From a plasmid, in the NCBI RefSeq assembly GCF_055900595.2, contig NZ_JBVWEU010000010.1: a stretch of DNA of 4,996 bases. The stretch is one strand, 5' to 3'. Shown here piece by piece: positions 1,591 through 4,996 of the stretch; position 1 is the stretch's first letter, and each line of letters begins with the position of its first letter. Position numbers and translations under genes: made by a program. A model generated the notes under the pieces. The model was not told where the DNA came from, searched no databases, and worked only from the letters and a program-made list of their open reading frames with translations.

Positions 1591-1841
1591 TTTTTCTTTA
1601 CTGCTTGCAGCGCCCTGCCAGCACTAGAGGCCAACTCTTTGATTACATTATCTTTACTTTCAACAACCTCAGTAAGCAACTCGTTTTCGTTTTCCAGTTT
1701 ATTCAAAGCGTTCTGAGTATCTTCAATAGCATCATCATACCCTTCGGCATAGCCATCCATCCAACCAAGAGTATACGTTTGGTCCAAAAGATCAGCTTGC
1801 TTATCCTGCAGATCTTTATTCTGATTATTGTTAGAGCCCAT
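1584..1841 (-). CDS. Small acidic hypothetical protein, 85 aa (D/E/N/Q-rich, probably helical)
   Basis: ATG at 1841 preceded on the minus strand by TGAGGAAAAAAC (GAGG about 8 nt upstream); ends at the shared terminator. The plus-strand antisense ORF (1605-1901) starts with TTG, lacks an SD and is hydrophobic, so the minus-strand reading is preferred. No recognisable family. Confidence 0.6.
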   Translation of the reverse strand: MGSNNNQNKDLQDKQADLLDQTYTLGWMDGYAEGYDDAIEDTQNALNKLENENELLTEVVESKDNVIKELASSAGRALQAVKKNK

Positions 1842-2016
1842 GTTTTTTCCTCATTTGTTGGCGCATCTGAGTTTTCAAACCAGGAGGAATTCCATTTCTA
1901 AGTTTCTCACTTAGTCTGACTGGTGGTGTGTTTCCTGAGACTGGATTACAGTCAGCATCCACCCCGACATCTTTCTTTTTATAGTCGCCAATATTCCTAA
2001 CGTTATCTGTAGTCAT
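1831..2016 (-). CDS. Possible small basic protein, 61 aa, overlapping the start of the 85-aa ORF by 11 nt
   Basis: ATG at 2016 downstream of the AT-rich divergent promoter region; its last codons contain the SD of the next ORF (translational-coupling geometry). No convincing SD of its own and no recognisable motif; may be only a 5' leader. Confidence 0.3.
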   Translation of the reverse strand: MTTDNVRNIGDYKKKDVGVDADCNPVSGNTPPVRLSEKLRNGIPPGLKTQMRQQMRKKHGL

Positions 2017-2690: not shown

Positions 2691-2727
2691 AACTAGCTTT
2701 AGAAATGTCTACCTACTTCACAGACGA

Positions 2728-2755
2728 ATTTACCATAACATCCGTTTTTCGAACC
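2728..2755 (-). other. XerC/XerD-type site-specific recombination site (cer/dif-like, 6-bp central region), site 1
   Basis: Minus-strand reading GGTTCGAAAAA-CGGATG-TTATGGTAAAT (11-6-11). The XerD arm is identical to the cer XerD arm TTATGGTAAAT; the XerC arm matches consensus GGTGCGnAnAA at about 7 of 11 positions. Shares an identical 20-bp core (aatttaccataacatccgtt, 2727-2746) with site 2. Confidence 0.6.
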
Positions 2756-2760
2756 ATAAT

Positions 2761-2783: not shown

Positions 2784-3188
2784 TCACCGGAAAAAATCAT
2801 CCACAGAGTCGCTCCACTCATGCCCGGAAAGAGACCACACCTTGTTTATAGGGGGAGGATAACCACTCCTGCAGTACCCGTTTTTTCCCACGAAATCGAA
2901 TGCCCCGTGCGGGTATCCATTGATCAGGAGTACGCACTTCTGACTGTCTTCTGACCAGCCAATTTTAACATCAGAAGGAATGTGACCGTCTGAAACGTCT
3001 TCGGCATTGTAGATGTGTACTGCGTCCATAATCGGGTTTCCCTCGACGGACTCATCGAGCGCATAGAAATACCCGGTCCGGCCATCGTCTTCGAACACGG
3101 CGGCCAGCATGCCCTCAGGAGCGAGGCTCTTTATAACCTGTTCCTCCCCGACAACGAGCTGGGCCTGTATCGTCACTAAAATGGTCAT
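2784..3188 (-). CDS. Hypothetical protein, 134 aa, GC-rich, cargo of the Xer-bounded cassette
   Basis: ATG at 3188 with AAGGAG about 10 nt upstream on the minus strand; the ORF fills almost all of the interval between the two Xer-like sites. No motif recognised. The overlapping 70-aa minus-strand ORF (3115-3327) is judged spurious. Confidence 0.6.
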   Translation of the reverse strand: MTILVTIQAQLVVGEEQVIKSLAPEGMLAAVFEDDGRTGYFYALDESVEGNPIMDAVHIYNAEDVSDGHIPSDVKIGWSEDSQKCVLLINGYPHGAFDFVGKNGYCRSGYPPPINKVWSLSGHEWSDSVDDFFR

Positions 3189-3245
3189 CAGGTCTGTTCT
3201 CCTTTCCTTGGTTGCTTCGGCAGCCAGCTTTCAGACAAGCGGATA

Positions 3246-3273
3246 ATTTACCATAACATCCGTTATCAGCATC
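3246..3273 (-). other. XerC/XerD-type site-specific recombination site (cer/dif-like), site 2; candidate plasmid multimer-resolution site
   Basis: Minus-strand reading GATGCTGATAA-CGGATG-TTATGGTAAAT; central region and XerD arm identical to site 1, XerC arm about 8 of 11 to consensus. About 300 bp of GC-rich sequence with no credible ORF lies on its XerC side (3274-3580), where cer-type accessory sequences would be expected. Confidence 0.6.
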
Positions 3274-3594
3274 GTCAGAAACGCGCTGAGGGCGTTTCTG
3301 ACGGGAAACCGGTAAAACAGGCAACAAACCACCCGAAAACCCGCCAGAAACGCGCAGGCTCTGTTTTTATGGCATGCATGAGTATGCACGCAAGTGCATA
3401 GCGCGAATATTCACGCCATTCAGACAGGGTAAGTCCTGTTTCCGGCGTTCTTCCCATCCGAAAACGGTGAACGGGGACGCAATTTATTGCGTGGCCGTGA
3501 AGCGTTGCCGGCGCAGCCGGAAAACCGGTTTTCAGCACGTTCAGGAATCGGGTTCGTCGACGGCCGGCAATCACGTTATGGCAAGTCGCCGGAC

Positions 3595-3784
3595 GACTCA
3601 CCACACGATTCACCGGCGACTCTGCACTAGAGTCGTACCTAGAGTCGCCGCGACTAAAAAACAACCAAACGGGGAGTCGGGTCTAGAGTCGGGTCGTTAT
3701 TAACTCATTGTTTTTATAGCCCTGAGTCGTTACCGACTCTATGACGACTCGCCGGGGACTCTATGACGAGTCGTCATAGAGTCG
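3595..3784. repeat. Array of 12 GAGTC/GACTC motifs (11 as the hexamer GAGTCG/CGACTC), including two pairs of tandem 12-bp repeats and nested inverted repeats
   Basis: Counted directly: GAGTC at 3630, 3642, 3674, 3686, 3724, 3768, 3779; GACTC at 3595, 3618, 3735, 3746, 3757. Tandem ctagagtcg at 3627 and 3639; tandem gagtcgggtc at 3674 and 3686; 13-bp gactctatgacga at 3735 and 3757 (direct) and 3771 (inverted). Chance expectation for a 5-mer on both strands in ~190 bp is under 1. Confidence 0.7.
3757..3783. repeat. 27-bp perfect palindrome gactctatgacgagtcgtcatagagtc (13-bp arms around a central G)
   Basis: Every position i pairs with position 28-i; sits at the end of the GAGTCG array, immediately before an AT-rich stretch (3786-3860). 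Confidence 0.75.
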
Positions 3785-3982
3785 GATCTATATAAATAAA
3801 ATTTAAAAAACGAAATCTCAGGAAAGTAAACTACTGATATTAAATACAAATCTGCAAAATTTTAATTTTGCGTGGGGTGTGGGTATTTTTAGTGGTGAGG
3901 AGCGTTCAGAGATCTGACTATTTTTGGGAAGGTTCAGGAACTCCCCGGGATGGCCGGAGAGGAAAACTGAAGCATGACAGGG

Positions 3983-4384
3983 TCAGGATTTTTTCCAGAA
4001 TTTCCACCATGGCGCCGGGGATTCAGTTAATTTTGCCTGGTGATTTTCAAGAAGGAGCATGGCCTGTTTCAGGCTGTCAATGTGCGAATCTTTGGACAAA
4101 AGTAAAGTGTTCAGGTGTTCAATCTCCTGTTTCAGATGACGAATCACCTGTTCACACTGGTCAACAGAGGCTGTATCGCGCTGTTCAGAGACCTGTCCAG
4201 AATGGTGTTCACCCTTCAGTTGTTCAAAGGGACCAAAGACACGTAAAAGCTCTGAAGTATCTACCATTTTTGCATTGCGCTCACCGCTACAGGTGGACAG
4301 GTCACCTGCTTTAATTAACCTGTGCAGTGTTGTTCTACTCTTACCCGTCAGTCGGGCTGCCTCACTAATAGACACTCTGGCCAT
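3983..4384 (-). CDS. HTH DNA-binding protein (excisionase/MerR-like HTH_17-type N-terminus) with C-terminal coiled-coil-like region, 133 aa
   Basis: N-terminus SISEAARLTGKSRTTLHRLIKAGDLS fits the excisionase-family HTH pattern (EAAxLxGxSxxTxxRLIxxGxL); the C-terminal half is heptad-like and Q/E/L-rich. Start ATG overlaps the rop stop (TGATG at 4382-4386), implying co-transcription and translational coupling. Its antisense 148-aa ORF is Arg-rich and judged spurious. Confidence 0.7.
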   Translation of the reverse strand: MARVSISEAARLTGKSRTTLHRLIKAGDLSTCSGERNAKMVDTSELLRVFGPFEQLKGEHHSGQVSEQRDTASVDQCEQVIRHLKQEIEHLNTLLLSKDSHIDSLKQAMLLLENHQAKLTESPAPWWKFWKKS

Positions 4385-4575
4385 CAGTTACCATCCTGTA
4401 ATGCATCCAGTCTCGAGGACAGTGTACGGAAAAGATGCTCCGCATCATCGTGGAGTTTCTCACAAAGGTCGGCCTCGACATCAAGATCAAGCTCGTTAAG
4501 CTTCTCCAGCAGGAGCAGAGATTGATGCTGGATGAATTTAGCCATGTTCAGCGCTGTTTTCTGTTGTTTCGTCAT
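4384..4575 (-). CDS. rop: Rop/Rom RNA I-RNA II interaction modulator, 63 aa
   Basis: Translation MTKQQKTALNMAKFIQHQSLLLLEKLNELDLDVEADLCEKLHDDAEHLFRTL... closely matches ColE1/pMB1 Rop (MTKQEKTALNMARFIRSQTLTLLEKLNELDADEQADICESLHD..., recalled from memory), with identical length of 63 aa; located just downstream of the origin in replication direction. Confidence 0.9.
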   Translation of the reverse strand: MTKQQKTALNMAKFIQHQSLLLLEKLNELDLDVEADLCEKLHDDAEHLFRTLSSRLDALQDGN

Positions 4576-4599
4576 AAGAGGCCTCAGAGCGTCAGTGCT

Positions 4600-4996
4600 C
4601 AGTGTAGGGATGTTCTCTCTTCCGCTTCCTCGCTCACTGACTCGCTACGCTCGGTCGTTCGGCTGCGGCGAGCGGCAGGAGCATACGTTATGAAAGCTCG
4701 AGAAAACCGAGCGATCATGTAATTAAGCAAAGGGCAACGAAAGGCCGCGCCGCTGGCGTTTTTCCATAGGCTCCGCCCCCCTGACGAGCATCACAAAAAT
4801 TGACGCTCAAGTCAGAGGTGGCGAAACCCGACAGGACTATAAAGATACCAGGCGTTTCCCCCTGGAAGCTCCCTCGTGCGCTCTCCTGTTCCGACCCTGC
4901 CGTTTACCGGTGTCATTCCGCTGTTATGGCCGCGTTTGTCTCATTCCACGCCTGACACTCAGTTCCGGGTAGGCAGTTCGCTCCAAGCTGGACTGT
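4600..4996. other. ColE1-type origin of replication region (RNA II 3' domain, primer RNA-DNA transition, conserved origin-proximal hairpin region); continues at 1-330
   Basis: Near-identity by eye to pMB1 over cttccgcttcctcgctcactgactcgct.cgctcggtcgttcggctgcggcgagcgg and ggccgcg..gctggcgtttttccataggctccgcccccctgacgagcatcacaaaaat.gacgctcaagtcagaggtggcgaaacccgacaggactataaagataccaggcgtttccccctggaagctccctcgtgcgctctcctgttccgaccctgcc. The RNA-DNA switch is expected near 4735-4745 (inference, not mapped). Confidence 0.85.
4738..4996 (-). ncRNA. RNA II replication primer precursor, 3' portion up to the origin
   Basis: Continuation of the minus-strand RNA II from position 1 across the circular junction; the 3' boundary is approximate and placed by analogy with pMB1, where the primer ends near the ggccgcg..gctggcgttttt motif. 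Confidence 0.65.

Follow-up and report, generated by a model that had tools for sequence, protein, structure and literature searches.

The question raised by this locus is which protein would read a dense array of GAGTC motifs carried by a small plasmid. The DNA analyzed, referred to here as the window, is a stretch of 4,996 nucleotides (contig NZ_JBVWEU010000010.1 of NCBI RefSeq assembly GCF_055900595.2) which represents an entire small plasmid, near-identical to 4991-bp plasmids of Klebsiella pneumoniae, Enterobacter, and E. coli. A preliminary description had proposed that the array is a multi-site platform for a sequence-specific protein and had named iterons, a centromere and, as its last alternative, an orphan origin of transfer (oriT) served in trans. 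It is this last alternative that our evidence supports. We consider it probable, with a rough probability of 0.85, that positions 3594-3907 form a complete F-like oriT (MOBF, F-type pilus), present without transfer genes on a small ColE1-type plasmid, and that the array represents its TraM sites, sbmA, sbmB, and sbmC. The general idea of a binding platform was right on this reading, and the likely binder would be the TraM of a co-resident F-like plasmid. Because the nick sequence (3867-3880) lies outside the stretch considered at the time, the connection with TraM could not have been known.

An array of phased GANTC motifs

GAGTC occurs 17 times in the window when both strands are counted, and 12 of the 17 occurrences fall within 3595-3783. 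Shuffled versions of the whole window contained a mean of 8.46, equivalent to ~0.3 per 190 bp; the density first reported was therefore confirmed. The longer motif GAGTCG was found 12 times in the window, relative to 1.59 expected, and 11 of these 12 are inside the array. When a GATTC at 3607-3611 is added to the 12 copies of GAGTC/GACTC, the array holds 13 GANTC motifs in 3595-3783 (~190 bp). Outside the array the density of GANTC is 0.46 per 200 bp of window, and the enrichment within the array has a Poisson P of ~4e-15.

The motifs are phased at 11 or 12 bp. The 12-bp direct repeats described previously are present, both as pairs of GAGTC 12 bp apart (3630/3642 and 3674/3686) and as a repeat unit, CTAGAGTCG, which begins at 3627, 3639, and 3683. 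Two further features had been missed: six motifs at an exact spacing of 11 bp (3724, 3735, 3746, 3757, 3768, and 3779), and a perfect inverted repeat of 19 nt with arms at 3733-3751 and 3767-3785. Tandem Repeats Finder returned a weak 11-bp period at 3734-3769 and nothing else in the array; thus, this is a phased motif array and not a true tandem repeat.

The view that the region is noncoding also held, as the RefSeq record of the same plasmid annotates no gene there. Stop-free frames do overlap the G+C-rich left part of the array, in several frames and also across homologues. Two open reading frames (ORFs) overlapping the array, 3275-3664 (-) and 3374-3703 (+), are unannotated in RefSeq and gave no family match, and we treated them as non-genes. 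An Rfam scan matched RNAI only, with no match within the array, and in a scan of 3200-4450 promoter and terminator sites were no commoner than in shuffled controls, with nothing resembling a traM promoter found in the array.

An F-type nick sequence and the anatomy of the probable origin

The array lies 100-284 bp 5' of a predicted nick site, nic, which falls after position 3880 (Table 1). All 14 bases of the nic core 5' of nic, plus the first 2 bases 3' of it (GG, to 3882), are those of the F TraI substrate, which is 5'-TTTGCGTGGGGTGT followed beyond the cut by GGT (PMC2504302). Around nic the window reads TTTTGCGTGGGGTGT on the 5' side, identical to the F nick site, and GGGTATTTTT on the 3' side. 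The nic core is also part of OriT_100096, an oriTfinder entry cited for a Klebsiella plasmid proficient in conjugation (PMC13274134).

Measured from nic, the centers of the GANTC motifs lie at +100, +111, +122, +133, +144, +155, +193, +205, +237, +249, +261, +272, and +284, and they form three clusters. By our own count from the F sequence, these clusters coincide in place with sbmC, sbmB, and sbmA of F, and the inverted repeat of F sbmC, counted in the same way, spans ~+133 to +100. In F-like oriTs the interval of ~200 bp that separates nic from the traM promoter holds the three TraM sites (PMC3159463), and in the F relaxosome TraM density is seen at +93 to +117 and integration host factor (IHF) is bound between +23 and +60 (bioRxiv 10.1101/2024.12.19.629322). 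There are 2 matches to the IHF consensus in the entire window, and one of them, the candidate site at 3827-3839, falls inside this F footprint. F also carries an A+T-rich stretch at the place equivalent to window 3692-3723.

The element is not set in a tra operon, with traM on one side and the SLT gene on the other; its flanks are a cer-like site and, on the other side, a helix-turn-helix (HTH) gene, rop, and the ColE1 origin. It is thus an orphan copy and not the oriT of a conjugative plasmid.

Table 1. Features of the predicted oriT and the neighboring Xer site, with positions in the window and offsets (+) counted from nic.
Feature	Position	Strand	Description
Complete orphan F-like oriT (probable)	3594-3907	+ (transferred, T, strand)	nic core and phased GANTC array; right limit approximate
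Distal TraM-site cluster (sbmA-like)	3594-3647		five GANTC at +284, +272, +261, +249, +237; steps of 12, 11, 12, 12 bp
Middle TraM-site pair (sbmB-like)	3674-3691		two GAGTC 12 bp apart, +205 and +193
A+T-rich spacer between sbmB-like and sbmC-like clusters	3692-3723		putative place of F IHF site B, by position only
Proximal TraM-site cluster (sbmC-like)	3724-3785		six GANTC in 11-bp steps, +155 to +100; contains the 19-nt inverted repeat
A+T-rich stretch, candidate TraY site (sbyA-like)	3786-3826		between the sbmC-like cluster and the IHF match; by F-map position only
IHF consensus match (IHF site A-like)	3827-3839	-	TATCAGTAGTTTA (WATCARNNNNTTR); +42 to +54; candidate by consensus alone
nic core	3867-3880	+	TTTGCGTGGGGTGT; predicted cleavage between 3880 and 3881
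cer-like Xer site	3245-3339	-	core GATGCTGATAA-CGGATG-TTATGGTAAAT at 3245-3275; outside the oriT

A motif register shared with conjugative F-like plasmids

A query with 3560-3880 matched 2387 plasmid records, and 1270 of these are large conjugative plasmids, mostly of Klebsiella, which align only at ~3840-3880. Four of the large plasmids were examined, and in all four the nic-core match has traM on one side and the SLT transglycosylase gene on the other, as is canonical for the oriT of F-like plasmids. The Klebsiella F-like oriTs of L001, L002, and L019 share the nic core TTTGCGTGGGGTGT followed by GG, and two of them, those of pNJST258C1 (L001, IncFII) and pEC25-1 (L019), also share much of the register of the array.

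Five of the 7 GANTC motifs of pNJST258C1 occupy offsets found in the window (+100, +111, +122, +144, and +237; hypergeometric P = 7.6e-6), the motif at +237 being GAGTC, and variants of GANTC with one mismatch stand at +133, +193, +205, and +249 (a pair formed by GACTA at +205 and GAGTG at +193, and a GACTA at +249). In pEC25-1 the correspondence extends to 7 of 10 motifs (+100, +111, +122, +144, +193, +205, and +261; hypergeometric P = 5.7e-8), with GAATC and GATTC at exactly +205 and +193 and GAGTC at +261.

GANTC is a motif whose recognition by TraM has been described. The ribbon-helix-helix domain of pED208 TraM reads the pseudo-palindrome GANTC via Lys3, Gln5, and Tyr7, and its tetramer spans two GANTC motifs 12 bp apart, with 11-bp spacing also bound (PMC3159463). 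The TraM encoded by pEC25-1 (WP_004194114.1) has the N-terminus MAKIQVYVN, in which K3, Q5, and Y7 are the base-contacting residues of pED208 TraM, and the TraM of pNJST258C1 begins MPRVQVYIS, with R3, Q5, and Y7. F TraM has Asn5 and recognizes a different motif, A(G/C)CG(G/C)T (PMC3159463), and the F oriT contains no GANTC in the stretch equivalent to the array.

Conservation of GANTC among small-plasmid origins

We aligned ten small-plasmid oriTs which are 62-96% identical to the window within the array. Among the columns specified by the motif (GA.TC), 45 of 52 were invariant, relative to 4 of 13 central N columns (Fisher P = 1.6e-4) and 47 of 131 of all other columns (Fisher P = 3e-10). 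Homologous positions use GAGTC, GACTC, GATTC, or GAATC, differing by lineage. Such a pattern of columns would be expected if the functional unit were GANTC, read by a TraM with K/R3, Q5, and Y7, and it indicates that selection acts on the G, A, T, and C positions and leaves the central base free. Moreover, wherever the array could be placed relative to nic among the sampled loci, an F-type nic core lay at a constant distance from it.

These data bear on the alternative that the plasmid acquired an F-like oriT-traM promoter region by recombination and that this region is now a functionless fossil in decay. Consistent with such a fossil, the plasmid has no transfer genes, the place of the oriT is unannotated in RefSeq, and 957 of 1105 array-carrying records, which are small plasmids of Klebsiella and Enterobacteriaceae, are typed non-mobilizable by MOB-suite. 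In contrast to what decay would produce, the GA.TC columns are near-invariant across lineages 62-68% identical, while the center and the spacers vary, and the nic core keeps its distance in all lineages examined. Lineage-specific variants of the nic core suggest tracking of different relaxases, the element is kept in minimal plasmids of 2.1 kb, where dispensable DNA should go, and the plasmid co-occurs with a matching helper, as described below. A fossil is, in our judgment, very unlikely.

ParA is missing from L015 (2107 bp) and L016 (2299 bp), two small plasmids in which the array and nic are accompanied by only two or three annotated genes. Their content is little more than an HTH gene, a ColE1-type replicon, and a ~310-bp F-like oriT with 13 GANTC; rop is also annotated in L015. 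Both are typed non-mobilizable by MOB-suite, and they would be among the smallest conceivable mobilizable replicons.

Variation at the nic core was observed among the small-plasmid oriTs (L009, L010, L011, L015, and L016, compared with window 3870-3880), the variants being GCGTGGGGTGT, GCGTAGTGTGT, GCGTAGGGTGT, and GCGTGGTGTGT. The first of these, GCGTGGGGTGT, is the variant of the window, of F type, and GCGTAGTGTGT is presumably the R100 type. L016 pairs a window-type array (93% identical) with the GCGTAGTGTGT nic core. The distribution of nic-core variants across lineages suggests modular switching of relaxase specificity.

Hybrid origins and co-residence with a candidate helper

Hybrid oriTs were found in two large plasmids, L003 (55 kb; 5001-5345) and L005 (135 kb, IncFIB; 4001-4320). 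Both are of the small-plasmid type 5' of nic; on the 3' side they read GGTGATTTTGTGGTGAGGAGTGCAT, which is the large-plasmid type, and the SLT gene and genes of the leading region come next. pEC25-1 encodes the same SLT protein (WP_001568108.1) as the two hybrids, which have both lost traM. L003 is 94% identical to window 3246-3902, and in both hybrids the crossover maps to the ~40-bp nic core. The junctions would fit relaxase-mediated recombination between two oriTs, and the two plasmids look like footprints of oriT-oriT recombination or of cointegration between small ColE1 and F-like plasmids. A full F-type oriT with TraM sites would explain the cointegrates and hybrids formed at nic (L003 and L005).

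The exact 4991-bp plasmid is present in 2 of 5426 complete E. coli genomes, EC25 (China) and 1444 (Egypt). Each of these two genomes also holds a large plasmid with an oriT of the pEC25-1 type, which does not differ between the two helpers. Because only 17 of the 5426 genomes have an oriT of this type, the chance of finding it in both carriers is ~1e-5. Several of its other carriers are laboratory transconjugants; thus, plasmids with a pEC25-1-type oriT do conjugate.

Several observations weigh against the identification of the element as an F-like oriT recognized by a helper TraM. By BLAST against PLSDB, no similarity to conjugative-plasmid oriTs extends beyond the ~40-bp nic core, and the correspondence of the arrays is one of motif register and not of alignable homology. 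Megablast and blastn searches of PLSDB with the array returned only small plasmids, cointegrates, and hybrids (L003, L004, L005, and L006), and no conjugative plasmid with the same GAGTCG-type array beside traM was found in that database; for this reason we infer the cognate helper from motif register and co-residence. TraM systems are allele-specific, and GANTC alone may be insufficient for productive binding. The ten aligned oriTs are phylogenetically related, a concern which the contrast of columns within the alignment limits and does not remove. The hybrid junctions could stem from homologous recombination in the identical core of 30-40 bp, and the co-occurrence, which concerns two E. coli genomes, could be due to both plasmids having come together from Klebsiella, by whatever route.

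The plasmid backbone and other candidate readers of the array

RNAI lies at 177-278 (Rfam), rop is annotated at window 4384-4575 (-) in the RefSeq record of the same plasmid, with the HTH gene adjoining, and 4617-4996 and 2-335 share 72-76% identity with the ColE1 origin. These features identify the plasmid as a ColE1-type replicon, in which no Rep gene would be expected. The earlier remark that there is no Rep was therefore true and uninformative. The gene content comprises a ParA-family ATPase, an 85-aa hypothetical protein, DUF6530, DUF2251, Rop, and a 133-aa HTH protein. Neither a relaxase nor a coupling protein is encoded; an NCBIfam search of all ORFs gave no relaxase family match, in agreement with the preliminary description. 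TraM was sought in the window by tblastn and nothing was found, and PADLOC and NCBIfam applied to all ORFs revealed no defence system, with weak matches only. The plasmid thus has the composition of a pOriT plasmid, with an oriT present and without relaxase, coupling protein, or mating-pair genes.

Phased short repeats beside an A+T-rich stretch (3786-3865) resemble iteron origins, and a ParA-family gene is on the plasmid; the array could accordingly be taken for iterons of a second origin, or for a parS-like centromere served by the ParA-like ATPase (496-1554) or by trans factors. However, replication of the ColE1 type, indicated by RNAI, Rop, and the identity to the ColE1 origin, needs no iteron-binding Rep, and neither a Rep gene nor a ParB gene is present. 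The ParA gene is 2 kb away from the array and is missing from the 2.1-2.3 kb plasmids with the same array, which argues against a centromere for this ATPase. The A+T-rich stretch sits at the IHF/TraY place of an F-type oriT and holds the IHF consensus, and both iterons and a centromere would leave the fixed distance to an F-type nick sequence unexplained. We find either function for the array scarcely credible. The ATPase itself (352 aa, + strand) is without a ParB gene or a recognizable centromere and adjoins small ORFs at 1584-1841 and 1831-2016 (-), and its family matches are confined to the N-terminal Walker motif.

The HTH/coiled-coil protein (133 aa; 3983-4384, -) had also been proposed as the binder. 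The array would in that case be an operator or platform of the plasmid's own HTH protein, serving autoregulation, copy-number control, or a role of the protein as a relaxosome accessory factor. In each small plasmid of the family for which this was checked, its gene lies ~100 bp past nic, and the protein has a DNA-binding HTH_17 domain and a match to the Acinetobacter "plasmid replication DNA-binding protein" NF038291 which, at 63 bits, is below the cut-off of 85 bits. It is 30% identical to the ColE1 "entry exclusion protein 1" (E = 1e-10). Homologues of the protein, however, occur without the array: L014 (2062 bp) encodes one that is 72% identical, and L017 (a MOBC plasmid) and ColE1 encode homologues at 30% identity, and these three have neither a nic core nor a GANTC cluster, their densest 200 bp holding at most 3 GANTC. 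The HTH gene is tied to rop, to which it is linked across ~2000 plasmids, and not to the array. Moreover, motif, spacing, and distance from nic are those of the TraM sites of conjugative plasmids that encode no HTH protein nearby. A 5-bp pseudo-palindrome at steps of 11-12 bp is no obvious target for an excisionase-type HTH protein. With its free center and steps of this length, such a pseudo-palindrome is the signature documented for a ribbon-helix-helix TraM (PMC3159463). The HTH homologues without the array, together with the array without ParA in L015 and L016, indicate that the array is coupled to nic and not to the HTH or ParA genes, and we regard the HTH protein as a highly improbable reader of it.

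Outside the oriT, 3246-3339 and the ColE1 cer region share 71% identity, and their XerD arms are identical. The Xer core at 3246 is the left end of the module shared with L003, whose homology to the window runs from there to 3902, and modules appear to have been exchanged at oriT and Xer sites, as the homology of L003 spans the distance from this Xer core to nic. A second Xer-core-like site, GGTTCGAAAAA-CGGATG-TTATGGTAAAT at 2727-2757 (-), is in direct orientation with that at 3245-3275 and has the XerD arm of ColE1 cer. The two sites flank the DUF2251 gene (2784-3188; Pfam E = 8.8e-35), as if it were an Xer-bounded cargo cassette.

A model for mobilization by F-like helpers

The orphan oriT most likely lets the plasmid hitch-hike on large Klebsiella F-like conjugative plasmids. 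In the mechanism we propose, a co-resident Klebsiella-type F-like plasmid would provide TraM, TraY, TraI, TraD, and the pilus. The helper TraM, a ribbon-helix-helix tetramer, would read GANTC through Lys/Arg3, Gln5, and Tyr7, and tetramers would load onto the motifs phased at 11 and 12 bp. IHF, and probably TraY too, would bend the DNA between the array and nic, the helper TraI relaxase would cut the + strand after 3880, and TraM bound to the array would dock the relaxosome to the coupling protein TraD. The + strand would then move 5' to 3' from 3881, with the HTH gene, rop, and the replication origin first and the array last. The analysis shows the enrichment and phasing of the motifs, the identical nic core, a register in common with bona fide oriTs, selection on G, A, T, and C, the hybrids with their crossover at nic, and the co-occurrence with the helper; binding by TraM, nicking, and mobilization of the plasmid are what we infer for this element.

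The HTH gene, rop, and RNAII (window 3881-4996 and 1-330) are in minus-strand sense. Because it is the + strand that would be transferred, the incoming single strand would be the template for these three. Judged from the strand assignments, their early entry would follow the orientation logic of F-like leading-region genes.

We also considered whether the orphan oriT, on a multicopy ColE1 replicon, acts as a sink for TraM, titrating the autoregulatory TraM of the helper, derepressing traM, and competing for TraD docking. There are 13-14 perfectly phased GANTC per copy of the small plasmid, relative to 7-10 in the two helper oriTs examined. We think such a role unlikely; if it were true, the small plasmid would be a hyperparasite able to modulate conjugative transfer of F-like Klebsiella resistance plasmids of clinical importance, and the nic-core variants would be the trace of an arms race or of host-switching from one helper type to another.

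Among small ColE1 plasmids of Klebsiella, orphan oriTs are already known in principle, and an F-type orphan oriT reveals no new mechanism. We found no published description of an F-type orphan oriT bearing TraM sites in small plasmids. A 2024 survey described ~4-kb Col440I ColE1-type Klebsiella plasmids, which may belong to the same family as the window, as without evidence of mobility. With the F-type oriT recognized, its carriers are reclassified as probable hitch-hikers on the F-like plasmids of Klebsiella, which are the chief vehicles of carbapenemase genes; this is useful for plasmid epidemiology. The small-plasmid oriTs also offer a natural test set for TraM specificity, in which GANTC is kept, center and spacers are free, and nic cores are swapped between lineages.

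Comparison with known systems

Like the oriTs of F-like plasmids (IncF, MOBF12, MPF-F), the element has a nic core identical to that of F on its 5' side, an IHF consensus at the same distance from nic, and motif clusters at ~+100-155, +193-205, and +237-284 which correspond to sbmC, sbmB, and sbmA, with a proximal inverted repeat as in F sbmC. In contrast to these oriTs, which have traM and the SLT (gene X) leading-region gene as neighbors, it is bordered by a cer-like site and an HTH gene. The oriTs of pNJST258C1 and pEC25-1 have GANTC at identical offsets, but with 7 and 10 perfect GANTC, respectively, relative to 13 in the window. The central base is A or T in pEC25-1 and mostly G or C in the window, and 3' of nic the window reads GGGTATTTTTAGTGG where the Klebsiella F-like oriTs read GGTGATTTTGTGG.

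The crystallized complex of TraM with sbmA of pED208 (PDB 3ON0; Wong et al. 2011, PMC3159463) resembles the predicted arrangement in its GANTC unit with a free center, its 12-bp pairs, and the binding of 11-bp spacing as well, and Lys3, Gln5, and Tyr7 are also present in the candidate helper TraM WP_004194114.1. The sbmA of pED208 (IncFV, Salmonella), however, consists of four staggered motifs bound by two tetramers, whereas the window has runs of 2-6 motifs at single-turn spacing.

The plasmid as a whole is similar to "pOriT" plasmids (Ares-Arroyo et al., PMC10123127) and to oriT mimics (O'Brien et al. 2015, as cited in PMC6764390), in that a lone oriT of conjugative type would make it dependent, for relaxase, coupling protein, and pilus, on a helper with which it co-occurs. 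The small ColE1-like pOriTs surveyed mostly carry ColE1-type (MOBP) oriTs left after loss of the relaxase gene (PMC10123127); unlike these, the window combines a ColE1 replicon with a full-length F-type oriT. Small ColE1 plasmids of Klebsiella and Enterobacteriaceae such as pJHCMW1 and those carrying qnrB19 likewise have a functional oriT without relaxosome genes beside an Xer site (PMC6764390; Tran et al. 2012, as cited there). The oriT of pJHCMW1 was mobilized with the RK2 machinery (PMC6764390), whereas the element in the window is of F type, with TraM sites.

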